A DNA stretch of 64,000 nt from Phyllosticta citribraziliensis (GCF_038025025.1 NW_027117339.1:806001-870000); one strand, 5' to 3'; counted from the first letter of the stretch, positions 1 to 53,917 are shown. Translations and numbers: made by a program. The notes: generated from the sequence alone by a model not told the origin.

Positions 1-3000
1 ACAATGATCGACTGGCTAAGTCTTCGAGAGCGAGCGAAAGAAGCAAAGATCCCCGAAGCACGCCAGTCCCGATTTCTGTTTGAATGGGTACGCGGCACAA
101 CAGTCGTTTTTTGCGAACGCGCTTTACGAATTTTGGTGTGGCCGGTGAGCTGTTGCGTGTCACATCAAGAACAGAGAGGGGCCTTTTAAACGCAAAGATC
201 AGAAAGAGACATGGGCCGTGGTCACGACACCACTGACCGCAGCAGAGCCCCCGTGGACGATGTGCAGAGTGTGGTACGTCATGCCCTCTGTCTGCCCTTC
301 TCTTGTGAATATCACGCATTGACAGTCCAGGGAAGTGTCGCTGTGCAGCATTGTCATATCTTTCTGTTGATGAGCTAACAAACCAGGAGTTGGAGTCGAG
401 GTCGGGGTAAAGGATGGGGTGTCGCACGCGCAAGACAAGACAAGACAAAGTCTTGGATCGAAATTTGAGAGTTCCGCAGCAAGAACAGAGTAGGCCACAG
501 GTCGTCTTTCGTACTCTGTCCAGAGAGTTGCTGCTGGCTGTGGATGAGGGTAAGGAGGCGGATGAGAGGGGCGGTTTTTACATGCGACGGCCAGGCTCTG
601 GAACGCATGCGGGTGATGTCATGGGGTCATGGGGGCAGTGTGGGTTGCCTTTCTCTCTTCTCTCGCCTCGCATTTACTGACTGACTGATTAACTGCAGAA
701 CCAAGCCAACGGTCCACGCCAACAGTCCGCTTCTCTTCCCCTACATCCATCATGACATGATGCCCATCATTGTTGTACCGCAGTGCTGAACAGCATCTCT
801 ATAAGCTGTCATTTCCTCAAGAAACCCGTCACACATGCCGTGAGCAGAACCAAAAAATTGAGTTGTCGAACAGAAGGCAAAAGCAGACGGTGAGGCTCTG
901 GGTACTTGTAGGAGGCTGAGAGTGGGCGATGGCTGCTGTCTTGCGGTCCATTGTCGCGCTCTGCGAGTTGCAGGATGGGTCAGTGGAGGAGGAGAGGGAG
1001 GGGGGTTTTAATACCTCGTTTTTGCTTGGAGTCACAGGGCGAGAAGAGCTTGGATAAGGCTCCAGATTGTGATTTGCATGCGTTGGAGGCTTCACTGAAG
1101 AGCTGCTGCCATGTGAAGTGTCCAGTTATGCGGAGGAGAGAATGATGCCGGGCCGCAGATTCAACATCTGACCGGCCCGCGTCGTGAGTATAAATCTCTT
1201 CCCTTCTGCATCTACTGCAAGCTCAGCGCAAAGAGACCAACCACGAAACGTTCTACTTCATTCTAACCAGATCATTTCCACTTCCCGCCCTTTCTCGCAC
1301 ACTGCTGAAAGATCTCCAAACATCACTAACGGCCCATGACGCTGAGCAGCATGTAGTCACCTCAACGCTGACCACCATCCACTCAGCTCGACGTCCACTC
1401 TCCACTCTCTAATCTCTAACCTTCACTTTCGCCGAACCCAATTCTGCCCCCATTCAAACATAACCGCCACAACCGCAGCCACCTCGCCACACATCCCCTC
1501 TCAGCCCCCACACCTCCGCGCCGCCGCCATTTACCACGAGACACGCACCTATCTCCGACGCACAGTCTCTCTGACCGGTCCCACACACCATAATCTCCCA
1601 TCTCCAGCGTCCAACTCATCAATTAGCGACAAGCGGCCCCCACCATGGCTTCTGGCGTGTGGCGTGTGGCGTTTGGTGTATGCGCCCTGCGCCGCACGCT
1701 ACGCCATCTTGTTTGATTGTCGTGGAACCGTGGCGCGGTTGCCGCGGTTGCCGCGTGTGGGACATGCGGTGCGGCGCGGCGGCGCGGATGTTTTGTGAGT
1801 GCGTTTCTGAGTGAGACCACGGACGATGGCTGTCGTTGATTTGATTGTGCTGACAGACTTGTGGCCCTTGCGTTAAGCTGAGTGGTGAATTCGGCAAGGG
1901 GGAGAAAAGGGGGAAACGTGTTTGGCGTCGGCAAGTCATTCCGGCATCTTTGCCACGCTTGAAGGTACTGTGCTACGACACTGTCTACCATCGTTGTCTC
2001 GGTATGTTGGCTCTCACTATTATTCAAACAGAAGGCCGCCACATCATGCCATTAACACACTAGCAACAGCAAAGAAGTAACTTTGTACAGGAAAAGGGCA
2101 CGAGGCCAGTTCCCAGGTTGAAGGCTTCATGGCCGTCGGGAGCGAACCTGGAAACACGGCTGTTGGTAATGGATAATTTTTGGTGTGAAGAGAAACGAAT
2201 TTATGTGTCCGAAGAGGAGCACGAGACAGGCCTGGCGTCTCACATGTCGAGAGGACTCATGGAAGAGCGATCACGGAGACGGTGGGCGGACCCCTGACGG
2301 CACGCTGCTGACCCTTCTAGAAATGACAGTTACGGTAATGTAGCAAGAGTGTGCCACAAACTAAGGCAGAGCCAGTACTTCAGTTTCCAACGACGGCACC
2401 CCAAGAGTCAGCGACACTGCCAGTCCTTCCGTGGGTAATGGCTTCAGAGGTTGTTTATATACTAGATCCAGGGACTCGAGGGCACGTTGGGAGTGGATCG
2501 CGAGCCGCAATCAGGAGGTTATACCCCTGAAACAAGCTGAGCCTGTTCAAGCATGTGTTACTTGTGAGAGCAGTTCATATCACGACTGCCTACGGTTCGC
2601 CGCACTGTTCAACGTGGCTGGATATAAAGTGCGGAACTCTCCCTCTTCAATAGAAACTCTACAGGCTTTGTCAACATGGCTTTAATCTTCTTGGTCGCCC
2701 GGTAGGCCGAGAAGTGTCTGCGTCATTCTGGAGTGGTGTTGTTGCGCACGACCAGTGTCAGACGATGGCAGAGAATAGCAGAAATAAAGGTGGTGGATAT
2801 ACTTTGATAGAGGGTAACTCATGACACAAGCAGCAGACTAAGTCGAGATGCAGAAGAGGGAGAAATGTAGGGTACGAAGGTAATGTAGTCTTCTTACTGT
2901 GGGGTAAGAATAGATCCCCAGTCGACAAAGAAGGGACAGGGGTAGATTGGGAGCAAAATATATACTCAAATTCTCAATCCAAGAGCCCGCAACTCAAAGT

Positions 3001-6000
3001 CCGATTGGCAGGCGACCGAAGTTGAGGCGCTTGTGACAGCCGCTCTGGCCGCCGCGTACGAGGTATAAAATCAGGGGCTGTTCGACAACCTCTCATTCTT
3101 TATTCGAAGTAAGGTCAGCTCATTCCACTGACAAATAATGCACCACTGCTCTTTGCCTTTCGACGTACTTCCTTCCATTGGCCGCCTTGTCACGGTTAAC
3201 ACCAAAGTGAAGAAGTTTATGTAACACCCAGCAGCTTCTCTACAAAGCAAAGCCCAACATCATCAGGTAACAAAATTGACAGTCGGCATACGCTGCGAAC
3301 GAACCTTCCCGCTGCTTCTTCAAATGCCGCAACGAAAGTCCGTCGTTCTCTGATTAAAGCCATAGGCGCTGGTGCAGAACACAAGAGAAACAAGTAGATC
3401 ATCACTCAGAAATCATCACCAAGTCTCACAGCCGTCCGTCGAATGCTCCATGCTGACTGCCGGGAGGGACTGCGGAGAGTGAACGGCACATGTGAAGACC
3501 GCCGCTTTGACCACTTCGGCGAATGTATAAAGCGGCGGGTCTTCGACTGCGATGCCTTTCGTACATCTCAGCGGTCGGTTGGTCAAAGTGTTCGACAAGA
3601 TTATCGCACAAGAATTTACTGCTTTCCACGGTCTCCGAATCAAAAGACTGGTTTTCTTTGCTTCGTGTCTTGTTTGTTTTGGATTTTCTGGCATAAAGGC
3701 TCAGTCTGCGCGAAGAAATTTGTTTGAAGACGAGGATCTACGTCGTGTGAACGCGGCGAAGAATACCACCATCATCAGTCGATATTGAATATGACTGGCA
3801 TCCGCGCGCTTTGCGAGTGATAAGGTCGTCGACCTGCCAAAGAAATTCGCAAAGTCGACGCTACCAGGGAGAAGCAGCCACAGGGCCCCAGTCGCCCATA
3901 AGCTGGTGCCATTTTCACCCTTCCACGGTGCAGACTGTGCTTGAGAAACAGATCGAACAGCGAGAGGACCGCCAGAATTTATACACTCAGCCCCAATTAT
4001 AGGAGCCACATGTCACTGGCCCTCCAGACTGCGCATGCCATTACATGTGCAGATCAAGGCACCTATGACGATACTGGACCCTCTGACTTGTGATTCTTCC
4101 ACGACGCCAGTGCGCTGGCGATTGTAAATCTGTAAAGCCTGATCCGAATCCAGGACGATCGTTGTTTGTCAATGGACTCAGTGTCTTTCTGCAGCAAGAC
4201 AGACGCAGCAGAATCTGCGTCCGACATGGACAGCGACTGTTCTTCTGTTGCGCTCCGGCTGCACTTAAACTGCACTTTGTTGGCTGTCGACAGTCAGAAA
4301 CTAACCGTGCACTCCCAAACCCTCTAACCACCATAACACCACAATGCCACAATGCCACATCCCATCATTAAGCCACGACACTGCCAGCCAGTCCACCACA
4401 AAGACAAGAGCACTTTACCAGAAAGAGATAGAGCGCCGTGCCCACGCGCTCGCCAATACCAAAAAAATAAGAACAGGGCGAACGACCTTCCCCATCCACC
4501 TAGCCGCATAAACGGTCAGATACATGTACTTATGTATGCATGTACATGGCCCATCAGATAACAACCTAGAGCACAGCACCTAGCCCCAAACGAACCAAGA
4601 ATCAATGCGGCAAACCACCCACGCATCCATCTGCCGAACAACCTAATCATGAATGGAGAAGAGAAGCCAATATTCTCACGCCGCCTGCCTGCCTATCTGC
4701 CACGCCACACGCTCGCCGCAACACCGACGCTGCGAACAAACTCGCCACTTGCACGCCGCCCTGCGCTGTCCGTCATCCGCATCCATGCGCGCGGTCTGTG
4801 CCATACCGGACGTATCCACTCCGGGCACCCACCCACTCCCCGCACCGCACGTGGCTGACCGGCTGCTTCTCTGATCAATGGGGCAGGGGGCTTGTGTGGT
4901 CTGGTTTGGTCTGGCGTGCAGCTCTGCATGATGATGAAAATGAGCTAGGTACCTTAGGTAGGTAGGTAGGCTTGCGGGATGTCTGCCGAATGACGTGACG
5001 TGGCTGGCGGAGGAGGGAGGCACAGAATCAGATGGATTGGGACAGCGCTTGAGTGAGCGAGCAGGCCGCCGGCAGACAGACAGACAGGGACGCAGGTTCG
5101 GACAATTTCATGTACCAATCAACTTTCATATTCTCATAAAGTCGTTTTTCTTGCTTGCTTCAGGAGTGAATCGCTCGCTTGCTCCTCTTGCGACGACGAA
5201 AACGCTAACAAAGCAGCAACGGCAACAGCAAAAGCAGAAAGGGCAGCGATGATGCTCGAAAGATCTGTGGGAATGGCAACAGAAATCGCGGAGATGGTGG
5301 TGATGATGCCACACCCGCGCCGTGCCATCAGAGCGCTGGACTCGGACGATGTGAAAGGCATGCCAGCGCCGCGCTACGTACGTACATGCAGACAGAGACA
5401 GACAGCAAGACAAACGAAAGGAAGGAGGGGGGCAAGAAGGAAAATCGGGAAGGGGGAAGGGTAAAATCGAGAAAGCCGAAGCGGACCAAGACTCTCTCAG
5501 TCGAAGGAGAGTCAAAGACAAGAGGAGACTCGTCGCGCCAGATCACACAAACTCAGGTCAATGTCAGGCTGCCGCCAATGCACCCTGGTGGTTTGAGAAT
5601 ACGCGGTGCTGCGCCACGCTGCGACGTCGAGGCTTCGTGTGGAGAGTGGTGGCTCGTACAAGGTCCGAGTCAGGCGCCGAAAGGCATTGCAGCTGTTCCA
5701 GAGAACGGTATCTTCTTCCACCAAGTCCGCTTTTTACACGTTGATGTCGTGACGGTCGTATTGGCTACGAGGCAGAAATGGTTCAACTCGTGCCTGCATG
5801 CCCCATCCCCCATCGGGTCGGCCGTTAGATATTCGTCATCAAAGTCTGACATGTGTCGGACTTTTTTCTTTTGTTCGTTCGTCGGGGTATACAACACTCA
5901 GATGCTTATGTATATAGGTTTTCGGGCAATGGGGTCGACTTTCGAGGACGAGAGACGAGCCTCACTGGCATCGAAAGCTAGAGGAGCAAATTTCGAAGCA

Positions 6001-42887: not shown

Positions 42888-45800
42888 TTAGTAAATGTAT
42901 TGGTAGAGATAGAGAACGTTGACAAATAGTGAGAGGCAAATTGCTCCAACGTTCCATGCTTCCTGCTTTTCGTCCTGGAGGGTTTTCTGCTTTTCTTCCA
43001 GCTTGTCTTCCAGCTTGTCCTCTTCTTCCTTTTCTTCTTTGCCCACCTGGTTCTCTTCCCGCTTACCTTCCTCTTGGTCTCCCTGTCTTCCCATCTGTTT
43101 TGGTCGTTGCTCGTCCTCCTGCCTGTCTTCTTTTTCGTGATTCGATGTTTCGCCTTCTTTCTTTTCTTGTTTGTGGTTCTGCTCGTCTTCCTGCTCCCCG
43201 TCCGGCCTTCTTTCCTGCCGCTCCTTCAGCCGCTCCTCCTGATCGTGCTCTTCTTTCTGCCTCCACTTCTGTCCCTCGTCCACGTCATCATTCTGATCCT
43301 CCACGGTTCCGTCCCTCACTTTCGCCATATCATCCTTTCCATTTGGCAGCCTGAGAAACGCAATCGCCTCTTCATACCGAGAGAATCCACTCCTTTCGGT
43401 GATTCCCGGCATCGAATGCGCCAAACTCTCCAACACAGCCAAAGTATTTGGTCTCAACTTCCCAGAGCACAGCTGCTTGTTGAGAAGGTATATGATGGTC
43501 GTCGCGATCCGCGCGAGTTCAACCTCGCGGTCCTGGCCGTAAGCTCCCTTGCGACCGTATTGAATGCCTTGGTGGACCAGGCTGGAGAGTGCTTGCTGGT
43601 TCTCGGGTGGGATGCTTTCAAACCAGTCCAGGATCACCAGAGCCAAGGTGGCTGCGCGGTCCGGGTCGTGTTTTTCGGCCGTGTGGATCAGCCGGATTAC
43701 GGCTTCGGTGATGGCCTCGACGTGCTCGCCCCCAACGTCCTCTCGCGTCAGGTTGGTTGCGATCTGTTCCATCGGATCTCCCCACTCCGTGGCAGGCGTT
43801 TCAAGCATCATCTTTTGAACTGGTTCGGGTGCGGCCTGGAAAGTTGGTCGCTCCAGGGCCCATTTGAAAGCGGAAACGACTTGGGGGAGGAAGCTGTATG
43901 CAACCTCGCCAATTCCCTGCTTGACGGCTGCCCGGAGTAGTCCAATGCCCCCGACTGCCAGGCCCAGAGCTTCCACGTGCATCTCTTCCGAAACACACTT
44001 CTTGTATTCCTCCAGCCCGTCTTGGACCAAGTCGGTAATGACGTCTCCCATCTTGTAGTCGATCGCCAACTTCCACTGTCTCACCCACTCGTCGACGAGC
44101 TTGTCCATCAGGCCCTTCTGCCGGCTCAAGGCCGCTTCCCTCAAGAGCTGGAAGCCTCCTTGCGCGTACGTCTCGGCGTTTTTCTGGTCGCGCGCCTGCG
44201 CTGCCCTTGAAAACCACTCTGCGAACATGCTGACGAATTTCGACACGATTTCCTCCCCCTCTGTGCCAATATCATCGACAGCAACGACAGCCGGGACCCA
44301 GAGTTTGGCCAGGATGTCCGACAGGCGTTTGTATTGCGCGCCGCGTCTGATGGATGTCATCAGAAGCTCCACACCCACTCGAGCCAGACCTTCGGCCTTC
44401 TTGATCCTCTTCTTTTGCGTGTACTTTGGATTTATAAGGTGGCCCTTGAGTTCTTCGGTACGCGCGATCAATACCTTTTGAAGCATCTCCTCGCGTGACA
44501 TCACAATGAAGTTGTTCAACGCTTCGACCCACGAGTTGGCCAGGAGATTTATCACCTGAAGCTCATCGCACGTGCGGATGTGATTGGAGTCTGCGTGTTC
44601 CAGATTTGCGTGCACCGAGTCCACATGCTGCCAGATTGCGTTCTCCAAGATCTTGACCGCAGCCCGTGTCAGTTGGTTCAAAACCTCGCGGTAGTGTCCC
44701 TCCAAATCGTCTCGTCCCAGGGACGACCTCCTTGGTGTGCTTTCGGCAGTCGGGCTTCTCCGCGTAATTTTGACGACGAATGAACCCCGGTTTGATGCAA
44801 GGCTGGGTCTGGGTCTGTATTGTCTTTGCGCCGTGGCGAGGCTGGATATCGACAGCCTTGGCCTCGTGTCAGCATCGGGAGCAGTTAGGCGTCGCTGCTC
44901 GGCGGCAGCTTTGGATGGAGTTGGTTTTGGTCCGGTTTCACGCCCCGTCGTATTACCTTCAGGTCCGCTTCCACGTCCCTGGGTTGACGCCTTTTGTACC
45001 GGGTATGATTGGAAATCTGTTGGATCTTGCCACTCGGCAGATTCGGACACCGGGCTTAACGGAACAGTAAAGTCTGGCGCCTTTTGGTTATGCGGAACTG
45101 AAGGTCCGGGGGCATCTTCTTTTCCTCCGGAAGGGTCTTTGCGGCGAATTTTGTGGATCAGACGTCGAAACATCTTCCTGCATCGCTTTCCCCTTCCCAC
45201 AAACAGCTGACGCTTGTTATTGGGACTCGGGGGCTCGCTTCGAGGCTCAAGTTGAGTTACCTCAGATGCAGCAAGGGGCTCGAATGCTTCTTGCGATTTT
45301 CTCCTCATGGAGAGTGCATCTTGGAAGTATTCATCTGGCGCGTCTCTCTCTTCTTCCCCTTCTTCCTCCACAGTCTCCAGTTCTGCTTTTGCGTTCTCCG
45401 TCGTGGCCAGAATAACGACAAATTCGAAAATCTCCTTGCACACCAAGGTCATCGCTTCAAGGATTGGAGTCTTCCCGCTTTTCATCCAAAACTCGAAGAA
45501 TCCCTCCGCGAAACGGATGATGCGCTTGATGACAGCCATGTTGCATTCTGACACGGCGCTCTCAAACAAGTTCCGGTTGACGGTGATGATGGTAAATTCC
45601 TGTTTGCCCTCGAGCGGGGTCACCGTGTTGTACTGCGCAGCTCTTGGATCTCGTTCTTGCAGAAACTTCATGATCTGCTTGTAGCCACCTTCCTCTGCCG
45701 CCTGATGGGCAGTCCCCATTGGGCCCTCGGCCGAGCTTATCGAAGCACCTCTTTGGCACAACAGCTCAACCAGAGACAGATGTCCATTCGAAGCGGCTGC

Positions 45801-48636
45801 GCGCAGAGCAGGTCCGTACCTTCCGGTGCCGTTGTTGACATCTAAGCCATGGTCGATCAATGTCTCGATTATCTTCTCGAACGGAGCCGGGTCCATGGTT
45901 ACGCTGCAACCAGTAGCCGCGGCTGTGAGGACGCTTCCGTAAGTTTCGTTTGTGGCGTGAATGTTGAGCCTGTTTCTCGTTTTCCCTTCTTTCTCCCCCC
46001 TTTTTCGGTCCTTTTTTGTTGTTTCCTTCTTCTCGCTAATCTTCTCTCCGAGGAGGAGCTCAACAACGCTCAAATGACCGTGGAATGCCGCAGCATGGAG
46101 GGATGTACCGAACGGACCTTTTGACTCCTCGATTGGCTTCGTCTGCGTCTTGTACTTTGTGAGGATAGACTTGACGCAACGGTCACAGCCAATCAGAGAC
46201 ACAGCCTGTAGAGCGGTGCCGAAGAAACTTTGCACCTCAACGTCCGCCCCAGCCTCCAAAAGCTCTGATACGACGTCCTCATGGTGCTCTCTGCAAGCAG
46301 CAATCAGGGCTGTTTCTCGTTCGTTGCTTTTGCGGTCAAGATCGGCACCCCTCTGAATGAGCAGCCGTACCAGATGCAGTCTTCCGTGGTGAGAAGCATA
46401 ATGGAGAGGAGTGCGACCTTCGTTGTCGTGTGCGTTCGGATCTTTCAGATGCTTCAACAGTGCTTTGACCATATGCGCAGCCTCGCTGTCTTTCTTGTCC
46501 TGTTCAGTCCGGTTTCGGATAGCCCAGTGGAAGACTGTCGACCCCTCGTCATCCCGCTTCTTCAGGTCTAGCAAGCGTTTCTTAACAAAGTAGTCAAGAA
46601 ATTCGTGGAGCGAGAAGTAGCTGATTATGTGCTCCAGATGGATTCCAGGGGGCAGTGATTTACCCAGTGTCATCAAATAGACTTGGAACGACAACTGCAA
46701 ATTCTGGTTCTTCTTAGACCTCCTCTTCTGCTTGGCCCTGGACGTCTCGAAAAGCTTCTTGAAGCACTTCAAGAGACTTGCATGAGTTTCCTTGATGGTC
46801 CCTCTCGCTGTAGCGTCGAAGCTTTTCATTGTGCTGGAAGCCCAATTACACGACGCAAACTCCAGAAATGGATGTTTGAGAAGGAGAGGCTCAAGACTGC
46901 TATAATCGTACCATTTTGCATTGTCGCATGGCCCCACTGTGAAGTCTGGAGAGCAAAGATGAACAAGGCAGAGTTCGGCGATCAGTTTGTGAGTGTCGGC
47001 TGACTTGTGTCGTGTGAAGAAGTCGAAGGCGCTCCGGTGACAGAATCGAACGCTCCCAAGCTTGTTATTTATGTCAATCAGACTGTTACATGACTGGATG
47101 ATCTTGGTTGGGTCCTTGTAAAGTTCATGTCTGAAGTCTTTGTTGGGTCTTCCGGTTGTGGTGTCGAGCGAGAGCGCCTCGAGCAAGACTTTTAATGGCA
47201 TTGATCCGGTCGTATGTGCAAGCAGCGCCATGGTCCTGGTTGTAATTTGTCGCTCCTTTAGATCTCTATCGGGTGACTCAAAGTCTTTGACGTAAAATTC
47301 ATATATCCGGTCCATCTCCTTGGGCGGGGTAAGTTCTGTGAGAGCAGGTCTGACGGCGGATTTGTAATGCATATTGCAGAATCGTACGGTTTGCAGCTTC
47401 GCCCACAAAAATCTAACCAACGAGACGAAAGTCAGTTGTGAACATATTTGGATTGTGTGATTGAACTTACATTCCATCCGCTTGGTTTTCCAAAGCATCC
47501 CGAACTTTAGCTTTGAGTCTTCTATCCTGCTGGAAGAGATCCGAGTCTAGATATTTCTCCAAGTAAAGATGAATGTCTTTGGCATTATCATCATGCTTGA
47601 CTCGAATCGGTTTCAATCCGTGTGGCTTGAGCTTTTCATAGTTAAAGCTTTCCCGTGAGCTGATTGCGACGGCAAGATGGCATTTGTTCGCGCTCTTTTG
47701 ATGCTCCCGGAAGAGCGCATCGAGCCCGTTCACAAAGTGGCGCTGATCGTCCTTGTCGAGCTGGTCCAGCGCATCAACGACGATGAAAACATCGCGCTCA
47801 GCTCTGGCCAGGCAGCGGTTCAGATCAGCTTGGGTCTTCTCGTCATCCGAATTTGCGCATTCATCGACCGATCTCGTCTCATTCTTTCTCATTAATTGCT
47901 CCTCAAACACCTTCAGCATGGATCTGTACTGCTTGTCGTTTTCGTAGCTGACGTAAAAGTATAGTAGGCTCGTGTTTTGGGGCTGACGTTCGTTGCGAAT
48001 ATGCTCAATGACGCGGGACCTGAAGAAAGCAGGTATTAGTATGAATTGTAATTTTATGATGAATCAATTGCAGATGGTGAATGAATGCTCCCTCTAGGTC
48101 TCTTGCAGTGTGAACGTGCACCCTCGATAATACCTCAAATCTCAGACTCCTCGATTCCCGCTGCAGTGCCAGTCAAACGTCTTGCTGTTGTGCAGCGCGA
48201 ATCTGTCATCCAAGGGGCTCAAAAGAACCGGGTGAACTCACATCAATGTTGTTTTTCCGCATCCCGCTGTGCGCTGGTCAATACAAAGCAACGCATTGAA
48301 CTCAATCTCGAATACTTACGGAGCCCATCGATCCACAGGACCGAGTGTTGGTTCTCCATTTTGGCCCATGCTGTGATGTCATTCTCTTTCTCCAACCATC
48401 CAGTCGTGCCAGCAGTAGACCAGCCAGCTTTGGCTGCTTGGTGGTCTTCTTCGGTCTTTTGCTTAAGTGTCTTTTCCAGAGCACTAGTGCCATTCACAGC
48501 TGCCTTTGCATGAGTATTTGGAGACTTCCATCGAGAGATTGGACTCACTGGTCAAGTAAATATCGCCATTGTTGACCCCGTTCGCGATACCAAATATTTC
48601 ACTTTGAGATACCGCTAGAGCTTCTTGTCCAGACAT
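42888..48636 (-). CDS. Fungal NLR (about 1788 aa): N-terminal amyloid-like motif, NACHT, ankyrin repeats, long C-terminal extension
   Basis: Exons 48636-48549, 48499-48320, 48266-48242, 48019-47471 and 47412-42888; all introns GT-AG, frame conserved. Walker A LWIDGLPGCGKTT, LLYFY, Walker B VFIVVDALDQ, AISSR, DGIFLWAKL, VRFCHRSAFDFF, HPFLEFASCNW, and about 8 ankyrin repeats (e.g. GRTPLHYASHHGRLHLVRLLIQRGAD). Confidence 0.9.
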
Positions 48637-49626
48637 TGCGACCGTCGGAACGTAGCACCTCTCTCAAGCTACGGGTTCTCGTTGTCGGCGGTTCCAAAAT
48701 CAGTTGCTGGGGGGAAAATTCCTGCCAGTCTATGTCAATCGTGCTGGGTTGAGCTCAATAATCAAAACCCACATCAGACAAAAGCAAACAAAGTCTGCGG
48801 TCGGACTGATCGAAGAGGTAATGCAGATCCCGAAACTAGGTGAAAAGTCCCAGCACATATCCAGTGCATATCTCTTGACACAAAACTGACCATGAAGCTC
48901 CTGGTGGTCTACTCTCGAGCTTCAGTCTGTCGCTCTTGAGAAGACGGTAGGATTCACTCTTGCAATGTCCAAGCCTGTCCTATCATGATCATCGTGATCA
49001 CTGTCTTGACGGACACCACAAGCAGAACTCGAATCTGAGAGCATGCTCCTGACCCCGCATCGATGACCCGATTTTCGTGCTTTTTTGACCAAGGGAATGG
49101 TTCGGAGCTTCTTCCAGCCCTTGCAAAGCAAGAGGAGCCAAACTTTGTCTTGATCGAATGGCGGAAGGAACCGCCGGTTGAAGATTGCCTGTGGCCCCAG
49201 TGTGCTCTGCTTGTCTCAATTTGACCCACCAATTATAAATGAAAACCAATCAGCCATTCACACATGACGAGGGCCCCTCGTGGGTCTCACGATCCCCCCG
49301 GACCATCTGGTGAGGAGATAGACGAATTGCACGGCCCAGCTGTTCGGTCGATATGCCCTTTTGATACGTTTCGCCATATATTGATTGCGCGGTCAGTGTG
49401 AATGCTCCAGCGACGTGCTCATTTCTGGTTTAGCTTCTTGCGCGACTTGGGTAGCTCGTTATCACAAAGAAAATCGTACACATGTAGTCGCAAAGTGGAA
49501 TTTTGTGTCGTGGGACTTCGAATGTCCGGGAAAGTATCTCCGAGAGTCAGAAAAAATAGCGCTGCATAATCTCCCCGCCAGTTCCAGCACTCCCAAAAGG
49601 GGGTCGTAGCCAATGTATGTCCATGT

Positions 49627-50406
49627 CTAATTCCAAGTGTTGTTGGTAGTGTTGCCATTGCCGTTGCTGACACCCTTGACATCGCCGTGGTGGATTCCCG
49701 TCGCGATACCAGTGACATGTGACATGGTGATGGTGTACGAATCGCCGCCAGACTTCTTCTCAAGCTCATCCTGGACGGCTTTTTGCAGCCAGGGGTCGGT
49801 GTCCTGAACGACGTCCTTGAGAGACTTCAGGTTGGTCTTGCCAATGTCCTTGCACTCTTCGGTGCTGAGTGCCACTAGTTTCTTGTGTTCCTCCGGCGGG
49901 AAGACGGTCTCCAGTTGAGCGACGTGCTCCGAGATGTCTTTGATGAACTCTTCGAATTGCTCCTTCTTGTAGAACGCCCACTTGAGGCCGTTGTAAGCCT
50001 TAGCTGCCTCGATCTTGCGCTTGTGGAGAAATTGATGCAACTTTGACCGTATCTTTTGCAAGTCTCGCGGTATTGAGTTGGGGTCGAGTATCTGGTCGCT
50101 GCCCTTCATCTTTTCCTCTATGTCCTTGGCCTCACGTTGTGCGCTATAAAGAAGGTCTTCAATGTCGCTGAGGATGCTCTTTGCTTTGGACGATGGACTG
50201 TCCGCGACATCTTCTCCCTTGCCTTCAACCGTGAGGATCTCGTTAACCACAGCGACTTGCCCCCATCGAGACAGCCGGACCTGAATGATGTCGAGTTTGA
50301 GCTGATACGATCCGAATTGCTTTTCGAACTGTCGTGCGAGCTGAATATTTTTGAAGGTGTCGATTGCGAAGTTGAAAAGGCCAATGGCACTATTGGCGGC
50401 GTCCAT
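49627..50406 (-). CDS. HET-S-like HeLo-domain cell-death effector with a C-terminal Gly/Asn/Thr-rich prion-like tail
   Basis: GLFNFAIDTFKNIQLARQFEKQFGSYQLKLDIIQVRLSRWG aligns by eye with HET-s GLFNNCVDCFEYVQLGRPFGRDYERCQLRLDIAKARLSRWG. Also LKWAFYKKEQFEEFIKDI..LETVFP and DPWL, then tail GGDSYTITMSHVTGIATGIHHGDVKGVSNGNGNTTNNTWN. ATG 50406 has ACC-ATG-G context; alternative ATG at 50439. Confidence 0.92.
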   Translation of the reverse strand: MDAANSAIGLFNFAIDTFKNIQLARQFEKQFGSYQLKLDIIQVRLSRWGQVAVVNEILTVEGKGEDVADSPSSKAKSILSDIEDLLYSAQREAKDIEEKMKGSDQILDPNSIPRDLQKIRSKLHQFLHKRKIEAAKAYNGLKWAFYKKEQFEEFIKDISEHVAQLETVFPPEEHKKLVALSTEECKDIGKTNLKSLKDVVQDTDPWLQKAVQDELEKKSGGDSYTITMSHVTGIATGIHHGDVKGVSNGNGNTTNNTWN

Positions 50407-52304
50407 GGTGTCGAGTGGAGATAGGTGAGAAAGGTGCATATCCAACTCGGTCTACAGGAGTCTTCCTTCTTAAACATGAATCTATCCTTTCCCACTTGGA
50501 CCCAGTGACTCAACAATTGATGCTTTTTCTCCACCCCATCATTGTTGTCACGCACCTGGTGGGGTGGAGGGGCATGTGAGCAACATGAGGGTCTTCTTGA
50601 AAGACTTGTCTCCTCGGCTGAAAGGGCGGAACGCGGTGAGGATTAGTACAGACAAAAGTATCCGGAACAGGACAGGGAGCATCCAAGGCATTCTACGTGA
50701 TTGGTGTAGAAGAGACGGACAGAAAATCCGGGCGAATCAAAAAAAGTTCTAGACGAGTGTGGGGATGCATTCAGATTCCACCCTAGCACATGATTGGTGA
50801 CTTTGTTTGGGTTGCATAAGATCAGAAGGGATATCTTCGCGGTCCATGGATTAGTCCGGACCCTGCAGCGAAGAGATGGAATTTTGAGATGAGTTGTCTG
50901 GGGCCGTGCATTACGTGACGAATCCTCTGAAGCCAGCACGCTGTCTGCTTCAACCAGATCAGGTAGTATCGTGGCCTCCATAACTCAGGCGGCATGGTGT
51001 GCGACATATTCGTTTTACTGTTCTTGATGGTGGTTGGTGTGCAAGGTGCAAACATGCCTGGTGTTGATGTCCAGAGACACCATATTGTCTGCGTTCGCCG
51101 CTTGATCGCTCTCAGCAAAGTCTGTGCCCTGTTCATCTTGTGCACTGGCACACTCATACGGACGGAGCTCCGGCTTAGATTTGTTGGCATAGCTGATGCC
51201 GAGGTACCGGTAAGCCCGTTTTTGAGGGTTCAAATTTTTATGTGGGGAACAGCGGGCCGCCAGCTTGGTCCAAGTAGATGCGAGCACGTACTGGGCCTGG
51301 ACTGATTGAGTAGCGCTGTATTTCGTGTTGCAATCAATACTGTCCGTAAAGCGGAAATAGGCGAGCCGGATTCGATTCGGGGATGCTGGGGGAAGAGTGA
51401 GACCCTCATAATCTTGCAGCTGCCGCTCGTGTCGTGATTTGTGCTGTTGTTCTTTGTTGCGGCGGCTTGCACAAGCGCTCCAGCGGATTCGAATGTTGGG
51501 GAGGCCTCGAAACCGCTCTGACTCTGCCACTCAAGTTGCGCATAGATATCGGCGAAGAGAGGGATCTGAATCGCGGAGCAGTTCAACATGGCGTTTCCAT
51601 CCAAAAGAGCGCGGGACTAGATATTTCTGAGGGCTGAAGGAAGCAAACGAAGCACCTTGCTGAAAAAGCCATGGGAAGCGGCACACCAATCTCAGTGATC
51701 AGGATTGAGGTATTGTAGTTGTCCGCGCAGTGAGTTCGAGCGGTCGAATTTTTGGTGTGTAAGATCAGATCTTGGTTGGGTGCAAGGACAAGGCTGTGCT
51801 CCTGGTGGTGACCGGGGAGGTGCGTGATGCCTAAACATCTTTCCAAATCGGGAATGGCGCGGGCGCTGCTCAAGACTTGCCGCAGCACGCTTCATATCGT
51901 CCATCTCCCAGTCTCCAGAATTCTTGGTACCCGCGGAAAAAGTGAAGACTCAAGTTGCCACAGCAAAACGCGAGATCACAGCGAGACCAGACAAACTGAC
52001 GGATAAGCATACCTTCTTCCAGAAACAAACACATCGCTCCCTGGAATAAACGAGAAGACTCAAGCACTTGGATGTCTGCCCCCGAGCTTCTCACACGCAG
52101 GTAGATTTGCGCAGACTTTCGCGTGCCGCATATCCCTAATGAAGTAGGCCATCGAAGGAGTAAAAGGGGACAAGAGTAAGGAAAGAGGAACTCAGGACGT
52201 AAGCGCCGTACAAAATGCTCTCATAAACCTGATCTATCCGTATGACACCGCTCCTGCTCATCTACTTTTCCCAATCCAGTAAGCAGAACAGAGTTCGAGT
52301 CTAT

Positions 52305-53648
52305 CTACTGCGGCGCAATGTTCTCTTCTTGAATGACGACACCCCACTCGTGGTTCTCCTTTCCGTACATGATGTTCTTCAACCAAGTCTTGATCGTCTT
52401 GGCGTACTTGCCAGAGTCTCCAGCTGCCAAAGGGATGTCGATGTCCCTGCCACGGAAGTGGATGAGGCTGACGGGGGCAATGAAGAACGCCGTACCCGCA
52501 GCGAACGCCTCGAGGAGCCTGCCGTCGTCGACAGCCTCCAGAATATCGGCCATGGTGAACTTGCGCTCGATGACCTCGATCGGCTCCAGCTGTTCGTCTT
52601 GGGGGACATCGGAACCGCTCCAGCCGTTGGGAAGGCGGGTGCGTGCAAGCTCCAGCACCGAGCGCCTCGTCACACCGTCCAAGATGATCTTCTCATCCAG
52701 CGGTGCCGTGATCAGCTGCAGCTTGCCTTCCTTGGTCCTCCAGACGACGAAGAAGTTGCTAGCTCCGGCCTCTGTGACATCCGCCTCCTTGCCCAACAAC
52801 CACAAAACTTGGTCGTAACCCATAGAACGAGCCTCTCCCTGAGCAATAAGACTTGGTCCGTAGTTGGCGCCCAGCTTAGCACTGCCGAAGCCGCCCGGCC
52901 ACGCACGGATGCTGTCTTCTCTTGATGCCAGGAGCTTCAGTCCGGGCTTCTTGATTTCGACGGCGCCGGGAATGGACACATCCAGGTTAGGGAAGAAGCA
53001 AAGGATGACAAAGAGCAAGGCTTTCTTCGGCACATTGACACCCAGAGCCTCGTCGTCGGCAATCATGGTCGGGCGAACGTAGAGAAACTGGCCCTCGCGG
53101 CCCTTGGGCAGCCATTTGGGTCCATCGACGGCGCACAGCTTGGCGACGAGTTTCTCGACCTCCGAAGGCTCAAAGGCTGGCAGCGCAATGCGCTGAGCAG
53201 AAGTGAGAAAGCGCGCGGTGTTGCGATCCGGGCGGAAAAGTCGCAGGCGTCCGTCCCAGCCGCGGTACAGCTTCATCCCTTCGAAGCATTCAGTCGCGTA
53301 GTGCAAGCACGAAGCCGTCGGCATCAGAGTGAAAGGTCCATACGGCTTGAGCTCCGGCGTGTGCCAACCGCGCTCTGCGTCCCACGAGGCGGTAATCATG
53401 TGATCGGTGCATGTTTTTTGCGCAAAGACTTCGGGCGCGTTGGGCTCCGGGACTGGACGTGGGTTGCTGGTCAAGGTGGTGATGACTTTGGAGGCATCGA
53501 GGCCGGCGAGAGGCGATGCGCCGTTGCCGTTTGTACTGCTGCCGTTTTTCATGGTGGTGTTGCTGGCGGTGTTGGAGTTGGTTGCGGCGTGCGCGATGCC
53601 GGCGTCGGTCAGGCTGGAGGCCGTGGGGAGCGCCTGAGGAGGTGACAT
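52305..53648 (-). CDS. Branched-chain amino acid aminotransferase (class IV PLP enzyme)
   Basis: CLHYATECFEGMKLY, LRLFRPDRN, PLP-lysine AKLGANYGPS, EAGASNFF, ILDGVTRRS and EAFAAGTA. Intronless. Confidence 0.93.
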   Translation of the reverse strand: MSPPQALPTASSLTDAGIAHAATNSNTASNTTMKNGSSTNGNGASPLAGLDASKVITTLTSNPRPVPEPNAPEVFAQKTCTDHMITASWDAERGWHTPELKPYGPFTLMPTASCLHYATECFEGMKLYRGWDGRLRLFRPDRNTARFLTSAQRIALPAFEPSEVEKLVAKLCAVDGPKWLPKGREGQFLYVRPTMIADDEALGVNVPKKALLFVILCFFPNLDVSIPGAVEIKKPGLKLLASREDSIRAWPGGFGSAKLGANYGPSLIAQGEARSMGYDQVLWLLGKEADVTEAGASNFFVVWRTKEGKLQLITAPLDEKIILDGVTRRSVLELARTRLPNGWSGSDVPQDEQLEPIEVIERKFTMADILEAVDDGRLLEAFAAGTAFFIAPVSLIHFRGRDIDIPLAAGDSGKYAKTIKTWLKNIMYGKENHEWGVVIQEENIAPQ

Positions 53649-53917
53649 GACGTTGATTTGCAAGGCGGTAACAGGCGAGTCGATGTGGGTATGTGCGTTC
53701 ACTTCGGCGGTATCGGGACGTGGAAGAACGAGAGGTGTTGAGATGTTGGACTATCTTTGGTAGCGAGCAGCAAAGGCAGGGATAGACGAGAGAGACGTCA
53801 ATGGTCTCTTGGAATGCTGGAGACTGGAACGCGAGTCGATCCAAACAGCCAAAAAGAAGACGATGGCTCTCTTTAAGCAAGACGACGAGGGACCTCCGAT
53901 GGAAGGCGGGTACCTTG

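Follow-up and report, generated by a model that had tools for sequence, protein, structure and literature searches.

Introduction

Amyloid templating of an effector by a nucleotide-binding oligomerisation domain-like receptor (NLR) is established in fungi for the pairs NWD2/HET-S and PNT1/HELLP (PMC7885112, PMC5485727, PMC3321046). The motif named PP was first defined in 2012 on Arthroderma HeLo/STAND gene pairs and on Goodbye-HeLo and sesB proteins (PMC3321046), and its core is the pseudopalindromic NxGxQxGxN, centred on a conserved Gln (PMC9815663, PMC3321046, PMC7885112). In 2015 PP-type tails were reported on 98 of 579 short HeLo-related proteins (PMC4518210), and the S5 Table of a 2022 survey lists motif pairs on PF14479 effectors (PMC9815663). 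Here we describe a HeLo gene and an NLR gene that lie next to each other on the minus strand of a stretch of 64,000 nucleotides (nt) of Phyllosticta citribraziliensis (GCF_038025025.1 NW_027117339.1:806001-870000; the window, from whose first letter all positions are counted). The two proteins carry a similar short motif, and the locus probably works as a cell-death switch made of two genes, like NWD2/HET-S and PNT1/HELLP, with a motif that forms a PP-derived subfamily.

The locus resembles the PP HeLo/STAND pairs (PMC3321046) and PNT1/HELLP of Podospora anserina and Chaetomium globosum (PMC7885112) in the adjacency of the effector and NLR genes, in a single Gly/Asn-rich motif of ~18-20 residues with glycines four apart, placed at the effector C-terminus and the NLR N-terminus, and in an effector that is a HeLo or HeLo-like pore former. 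It differs from the PP pairs in that GIATGIH (effector) and GIANGVN (NLR) replace the central Gln and the flanking Asn, the His being conserved in effectors. Furthermore, PNT1 is an NB-ARC-TPR protein whereas the NLR of the window is of the NACHT-ankyrin type, and the window lacks a third (lipase) partner, since a profile search of its six frames found no third gene, lipase included, with the motif. Like NWD2/HET-S, the locus combines a canonical HeLo domain with a neighbouring NACHT NLR that has a short motif at its N-terminus, and templating is proposed to follow the same logic; the HET-S/HRAM1-5 effectors, however, carry two 21-residue pseudo-repeats (r1, r2) in a beta-solenoid (PMC4518210), and the effector of the window a single copy with another pattern of residues. 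The mammalian RHIM of RIP1 and RIP3 and the bacterial BASS3 are also short motifs, related to PP via a G-phi-Q-phi-G core (PMC7885112, PMC12261475), but the motif of the window lacks the core Gln by which PP and RHIM are linked, and any relation would run through PP only. Finally, the het-eN/sesA/sesB locus of Nectria haematococca, of the sigma type, is alike in that the motif-bearing 5' exon of het-eN was missed in the original annotation through an unnoticed intron (PMC3321046). The sigma motif itself differs, with about 25-40 residues and another signature.

Results

A motif common to NLR exon 1 and the HeLo tail

The HeLo gene (49627-50406, minus strand) is a single exon that encodes 259 amino acids (aa) and a stop. 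Its open reading frame (ORF) begins with the ATG at 50406, the last codon ends at 49630 and the stop occupies 49629-49627; the C-terminus of the protein, P0001, reads ...YTITMSHVTGIATGIHHGDVKGVSNGNGNTTNNTWN. The ATG of the NLR gene, at 48636, is located 990 nt past this stop on the same strand, and exon 1 (48549-48636, 88 nt) encodes MSGQEALAVSQSEIFGIANGVNNGDIYLT and then enters a GTGAGT donor. An earlier analysis of the window made without any other data (the sequence-only reading) had placed an upstream HeLo gene on the same strand at about 990 bp and had aligned its C-terminus without gaps to NLR exon 1; every coordinate and sequence that it gave proved correct.

In this alignment the motif core of the NLR (48559-48612), which read from 48612 to 48559 gives VSQSEIFGIANGVNNGDI, is set against that of the HeLo tail (49678-49731), which read from 49731 to 49678 gives ITMSHVTGIATGIHHGDV. 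The two agree in 7 of 18 residues and 29 of 54 nucleotides, and five of the seven identical residues use the same codon (GGT ATC GCG ... GGC GAT), giving the shared strings TGGTATCGCGA and GGCGAT. Aligned without gaps to the last 45 HeLo residues, exon 1 reaches at best a BLOSUM62 score of 59, a value that none of 5000 composition-preserving shuffles reached (mean 19.7, standard deviation 3.9). When the HeLo motif core was compared with the 2171 six-frame segments of the window (116,703 residues), the exon-1 ORF was the top non-self match, with a score of 49 against 33 for the next. The main profile was built from the C-termini of 25 homologues, leaving out the window protein and its two closest orthologues; on the six-frame window it found the HeLo tail with E 2e-16 and exon 1 with E 0.0036 (14.6 bits), one profile domain in each, and everything else at E >= 1.9. 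As in the PP systems, effector and adjacent NLR thus each carry a single short motif, the effector at its C-terminus and the NLR at its N-terminus. By these sequence comparisons the similarity of the two motifs exceeds chance, and the gapless alignment is real.

The motif of the NLR is also kept in relatives. In a related organism all five listed differences in the motif-coding part of exon 1 are synonymous, and of the differences listed one alone alters a residue of exon 1 (G3R), at a position outside the motif. The public protein P0045 has an identical motif and four changes in the 60-residue linker that follows. These observations bear on whether two Gly/Asn-rich segments of low complexity could look alike by chance. 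Each has a biased composition and the NLR scores only modestly with the profile, but the shuffles, the rank of exon 1 among all residues of the window, the position of the segment exactly at the N-terminus of the adjacent NLR and the synonymous changes make such a coincidence next to negligible.

Exon 1 is spliced to the P-loop exons

Contigs of four public runs (X1-X4) were placed on 47400-50500. One contig of X1 (9466 nt), identical to the window, joins 48549-48499, 48320-48266 and 48242-48019 and continues into exon 5, and its joints correspond exactly to the predicted introns 1-3. Contigs of X3 and X4, which come from other studies and from a relative with scattered base differences, have introns 1 and 2 removed, and X4 also intron 3. 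Exon 1 is therefore joined to the P-loop exons in contigs of three of the four runs. The absence of introns with canonical borders suggests that these are transcript-type assemblies; a run of DNA would have to hold a processed copy, which also requires splicing.

Intron 1 (48500-48548, 49 nt, GTGAGT..CAG) is absent from the X1, X3 and X4 contigs, the joint 48499 to 48549 being found in X1 and X3 and its equivalent in X4. It is followed by exon 2 (48320-48499), which encodes the linker and the start of the P-loop NTPase domain. Intron 2 (48267-48319, 53 nt, GTAAGT..CAG) is missing in X1 and X3, and X4 has a joint equivalent to theirs. Exon 3 (48242-48266), of only 25 nt and supported by the contigs and the spliced ORF, completes the Walker A motif, and intron 3 (48020-48241, 222 nt, GTGAGT..CAG) is absent in X1 and X4.

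The same joints are seen at the protein level. P0045 (97 aa), retrieved by a motif-profile search of a protein library and independent of the contigs, contains exons 1, 2 and 3 in frame and ends at the end of exon 3. Its residues 61-97 match positions 2-38 of PF24883 (NPHP3_N) with E 7.8e-8, which is the part missing from exon 4. The splicing of exon 1 to the NACHT exons, which the sequence-only reading had predicted, is in this way confirmed by the contig joints of X1, X3 and X4 and by the continuous exons of P0045.

An X3 contig that starts at 48123 retains 48123-48241 of intron 3, although introns 1 and 2 are gone. Retention of intron 3 would truncate the NLR just past the P-loop, and the sequence of P0045 breaks off precisely where exon 3 ends.

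The closest annotated NLR orthologues, P0033 and P0034 (1427 and 1658 aa; P. citribraziliensis and P. citrichinensis), begin inside exon 4. As they start at an exon-4 Met, they are devoid of exons 1-3 and with them of Walker A and the motif, so that it was fair to call exon 1 hidden. A motif-bearing first exon has thus again been missed by automatic annotation, as for het-eN, and surveys based on annotated N-termini would undercount such pairs.

The HeLo gene is likewise covered by contigs, from X1, X3 and X4. A likely poly(A) site of its mRNA is at 49483 (minus strand), ~144 nt past the stop, where a single contig of X2 (49483-49723) runs on into 12 T on the plus strand before 49483. The contigs cover the whole gap of 990 nt between the genes (48637-49626). 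The NLR contig of X1 reaches 49225, which lies ~590 nt upstream of the start codon, and has 22 nt in common with the HeLo contig; both genes are spanned by single contigs in X3 and in X4, in contrast to the poly(A)-like end of X2. This coverage fits either a long NLR leader that overlaps the 3' end of the HeLo transcript or read-through transcription.

The motif as a probable derived form of PP

The relation of the motif to PP was explored with an alignment of 28 HeLo homologues, whose tails have the consensus TYxIxQSHNTGxxTGIHxGDVKGxSNGNNNxTxNxW. At the same columns the distant homologues P0026 and P0028-P0032 read NNYGLQMGVNRGxMKGLSFGTGN, which contains the PP core NxGxQxGxN. In the alignment G-I-A-T-G-I-H of the window stands opposite G-L-Q-M-G-V-N. 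Glycine spacing and distal tail agree between the two groups; in the window the Gln is replaced and the Asn that follows is His. The distal tail common to the window HeLo and the PP-bearing homologues is G-x-S-x-G-x-x-N-x-T-x-N-x-W. The alignment bears out the PP-like glycine spacing without core Gln that had been noticed earlier. Compared with the five defining positions of PP, V-T-G-I-A-T-G-I-H of the HeLo tail retains two and I-F-G-I-A-N-G-V-N of the NLR three; both core glycines are kept, Gln is changed to Ala in both partners, and the flanking Asn survives solely at the last position of the NLR.

A profile of six Gln-type tails matches the HeLo tail of the window with E 6.6e-5, in keeping with the collinear alignment, and this tail is homologous to bona fide PP-bearing proteins; on the NLR exon the same profile gives just E 3.6. 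The NLR version, G-I-A-N-G-V-N-N-G-D, has Asn where the effectors carry His, and because it keeps this Asn its profile score is raised when Gln-type sequences are added.

Among 44 HeLo-family sequences, some of them near-duplicates, 32 have G-x3-G-[IVM]-H-x-G (His-type), 8 have the PP core NxGxQxGxN (Gln-type) and 4 neither (P0005, P0042, P0019 and P0027), and in all of them the motif region occupies one and the same place at the C-terminus. Between the first two glycines the 32 His-type sequences carry 13 different triplets, among them MVT, TAT and HTV. An unrooted maximum-likelihood tree of the HeLo domains alone (34 rows, last 45 residues removed) contains a branch with support 96/88 that separates the Gln-type rows from all His-type rows and the three odd rows. 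Furthermore, a 30-column profile made of NLR exon 1 and 13 His-type tails was run against 1.84 billion representative proteins. At E <= 1e-3, a threshold too strict for short matches on the NLR side in other genera to show up, it gave 15 matches: 11 C-termini of PF14479 HeLo proteins, the NLR orthologue P0045 and three unrelated tandem-repeat proteins.

The evidence favours a motif that is a glutamine-less, histidine-bearing, derived subfamily of PP (RHIM-like), with the signature S-H-N-x-G-x3-G-[IVM]-H-x-G-D in effectors and F-G-I-A-N-G-V-N-N-G-D in the NLR. A divergent motif is preferred to a new family because it aligns column for column with canonical PP cores and because of the match to the Gln-type profile. 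The sequence-only reading had offered both options, of which the divergent one is the better supported. It was also right in placing the motif on a canonical HeLo domain, but went too far in treating this as unusual, since PP was first defined on HeLo/STAND pairs (PMC3321046); the combination is already known and the new part is the Gln-less, His-bearing variant. We found no description of this subfamily in the fungal amyloid-motif literature searched, and published PP profiles may already capture these tails. The motif strings, two genus names and six accessions of four homologues have no matches in the readable supplements of the 2022 survey (PMC9815663).

These data can also be read in another way, in which the mechanism is the same but the His-type motif constitutes a separate amyloid signalling family, with its own fold and orthogonal to canonical PP (no cross-seeding). 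The low number of PP positions kept, the first-glycine triplet that varies freely beside a fixed G-[IVM]-H-x-G-D, the clean split of Gln type and His type on the HeLo tree and the six accessions missing from the readable pair tables of the survey (PMC9815663) would agree with it, as would the fact that all 11 genuine effector-side library matches are HeLo proteins, PP being found also on lipases and PNP_UDP proteins. The alignment with the PP-bearing homologues is collinear, however, with the same glycine spacing and distal tail, the Gln-type profile recognises the tail of the window, P0027 (GQTMG) and P0044 (GQTTG) are intermediates, and the tails may match the published PP profile hidden Markov models; a separate family is thus rather improbable. 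It is possible, if unlikely, that the His-type motif is a distinct, HeLo-restricted fungal amyloid family in which a histidine ladder replaces the Gln/Asn ladder of PP/RHIM. If true, an Asn seed in the NLR and a His effector would form an asymmetric template, effector conversion could be sensitive to pH or metal ions, and the lack of cross-seeding with canonical PP would give independent PP-like pathways in one fungus, the RHIM-type core Gln being dispensable. We retain as the preferred assignment a subfamily derived from PP.

Other described motifs were considered and rejected. As for the sigma motif, its length and pattern differ, and neither of the two proteins matches a sigma-type Pfam model at E <= 1. 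The HET-s/HRAM motif was discarded on two grounds, in agreement with the sequence-only reading: neither P0001 nor the exon-1 ORF matches PF11558 (HET-s_218-289) at E <= 1, and the 65 residues after the HeLo domain hold one copy of the motif instead of two pseudo-repeats. The missing PF11558 match would by itself be weak, as just 38 of 155 HRAM proteins match this family (PMC4518210). An HRAM assignment of the NLR motif, considered for its F-G...G-D-phi pattern, was dropped for the same reasons. PUASM, which is FxGxGxQxxGxGxF and occurs on PNP_UDP effectors only (PMC9815663), is absent from both segments, and the effector here is HeLo.

Domains of the HeLo protein and the NLR

P0001 contains a HeLo pore-forming domain at residues 5-194 (49825-50394, minus strand), with a match to PF14479 of E 5.3e-28 and 98.7 bits against a cut-off of 23.2, and a match to the HET-S HeLo structure 2wvn of the PDB with E 8.2e-20. 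From these matches the upstream gene encodes a canonical HeLo domain. In an AlphaFold2 model built with 28 homologues, residues 7-217 are confident and helical (predicted template modelling score 0.75). At E <= 1e-3 we found 29 homologues, of which the best is 97% identical and belongs to Phyllosticta citrichinensis.

The putative amyloid-type signalling region occupies residues 222-259 (49630-49743, minus strand) and is conserved in the 28 aligned homologues. It consists of 38 residues, is Gly/Asn-rich and reads DSYTITMSHVTGIATGIHHGDVKGVSNGNGNTTNNTWN; P. citrichinensis and the P. paracitricarpa model have exactly the same core. Along residues 221-259 the predicted local distance difference test score falls to about 50, from 85-95 in most of the HeLo domain, as the model would be expected to give for a natively unfolded C-terminal extension.

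The five joined exons of the NLR (48636-48549, 48499-48320, 48266-48242, 48019-47471 and 47412-42888) form one ORF of 1788 residues with no internal stop, and all four introns have GT..AG borders on the minus strand. The Walker A motif GLPGCGKT corresponds to residues 88-95 (48326-48250, across intron 2). As only 87 residues without a Pfam match precede the P-loop, the NLR has no effector domain of its own, which agrees with the sequence-only reading. Exon 4 (47471-48019) encodes the rest of the NACHT-type NTPase domain: its translation, P0002, matches positions 40-164 of PF24883 with E 1.7e-8, and PF05729 (NACHT) weakly, with E 0.017. Intron 4 (47413-47470, 58 nt, GTAAGT..TAG) is supported by loose ends at 47471 of X1, X3 and X4 contigs that read the start of exon 5, and by P0033 and P0034, which read ...QADGIFLWAK across the exon 4/5 junction. 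Exon 5 (42888-47412) encodes the ankyrin repeats, then a Pfam-free part and the stop. In its translation, P0003, the repeats begin at ~46475 (residue 313) and end approximately near 45500, with Ank_2 at E 1.5e-33 together with other ankyrin families and nothing further in Pfam at E <= 1. By its Walker A P-loop and its ankyrin superstructure the protein is classed, from sequence, as a NACHT-type STAND NTPase with repeats; a piece of it is 99% identical to a P. citribraziliensis protein.

After the ankyrin repeats ~900 residues (42888-45500) have no Pfam match, and a long Lys/Glu/Asp-rich stretch comes after them. The protein ends in a hydrophobic segment, ...WNVGAICLSLFVNVLYLYQYIY, which looks like a possible tail anchor. 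A neighbouring ORF of 481 residues (52305-53750, minus strand) is of an ordinary housekeeping type, with a Pfam match to Aminotran_4 (class IV aminotransferase) of E 2.6e-19.

Distribution

By source names, His-type HeLo proteins occur in Dothideomycetes, Sordariomycetes and Leotiomycetes, among them Aplosporella prunicola, Daldinia spp., Hypoxylon crocopeplum, Cladobotryum mycophilum, Trichoderma sp., Ciborinia camelliae and Phyllosticta capitalensis. On the NLR side a search with P0002 matched three Phyllosticta proteins and one with P0045 matched P0035 only, and the searches with the NLR N-terminus gave P0035 and P0045 as their only matches. A metagenome scan with the HeLo alignment found three distant loci (27-46% identity), none with the motif at E < 0.5. 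One of them, L001, has a distant HeLo gene (2904-3263, minus strand) with two similar short segments in its tail, which faces an ORF (3879-4718, plus strand) with a similar segment at its start. On visual inspection L001 resembles an HRAM-type HeLo/NLR pair.

Discussion

The locus is most likely a pair of genes that acts as a cell-death switch, as do NWD2/HET-S and PNT1/HELLP, and that is built on a PP-derived motif. By analogy with those systems, the NACHT-ankyrin NLR would sense a ligand through its repeats and oligomerise, gathering its N-terminal motifs (residues about 9-26) and thus nucleating a cross-beta fold. This fold would template the homologous, natively disordered C-terminal tail of the HeLo protein, and the conversion of the tail would free the N-terminal helix of the HeLo domain, with membrane insertion of this helix and cell death as the outcome. 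Amyloid folding, cross-seeding and toxicity had been stated too firmly in the sequence-only reading.

Several points weigh against this interpretation. Amyloid formation, cross-seeding and HeLo activation by either segment are transferred from the studied systems, and a PP/RHIM-like fold cannot be assumed when the Gln that defines PP is absent from both partners. The two motifs have just 7 of 18 residues in common, the conserved His of the effector being Asn in the NLR, and the match of exon 1 to the main profile is modest (14.6 bits); a profile of 18 Gln-less tails ranks exon 1 first among non-self segments but at E 0.49, and the Gln-type profile, at E 3.6, is less favourable still. The RNA label of the runs is a guess, their nature being deduced from joints that lack the introns and from a single poly(A)-like end. 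The pairing of the His-type subfamily with an NLR is seen in Phyllosticta alone, and within this genus some relatives look damaged: the HeLo proteins of P. citriasiana (P0005, P0042) have Glu at an otherwise invariant Gly, the NLR model of P. citricarpa (P0035), which keeps exon 1, has the motif GFTAKVINGD with the second Gly lost and has no Pfam NTPase match, and the HeLo model of P. paracitricarpa (P0006) is without its first ~100 residues, its tail being kept. All of these are gene models, taken as annotated.

Such relatives would be expected if the pair were an eroding relic, its similarity coming from common descent or past gene conversion and its signalling lost. Against this, both ORFs of the window are intact (259 and 1788 aa) with all four introns canonical, both genes are covered by apparently transcript-derived contigs, the invariant HeLo residues are kept, the motif differences listed from the related organism are synonymous only, and the damage is found in gene models; a relic is therefore very unlikely. 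The damaged versions may instead reflect a correlated decay of receptor and effector, by analogy with what has been described for nwd2/het-s.

A second objection concerns the nature of the contact, as the common segment might mediate a non-amyloid heterotypic interaction of NLR and HeLo protein, for example by beta-strand addition in a finite complex. The missing Gln, which is the N/Q ladder position, and a similarity of only 39% leave room for it. On the other hand, the Gly/Asn-rich and charge-poor composition, the regular G-x3-G spacing and the predicted disorder fit an amyloid motif, and we know of no non-amyloid precedent for this gene architecture. Homology to the prion domains of the PP type, which give rise to fibrils and prions (PMC7885112), points in the same direction, and with all this a finite, non-amyloid complex is most unlikely. 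A cell-death switch that works by amyloid templating remains the interpretation that we favour.

For Phyllosticta itself the locus is nothing out of the ordinary and belongs to an immune-type class of genes that is already known. The templating of effectors by NLRs is a well-studied fungal cell-death pathway, and PP is its link to mammalian RHIM necroptosis signalling. A widespread HeLo subfamily that is devoid of the defining Gln, whose motif is apparently under selection and paired with an NLR, thus represents a natural test of which residues a PP/RHIM-type fold needs.

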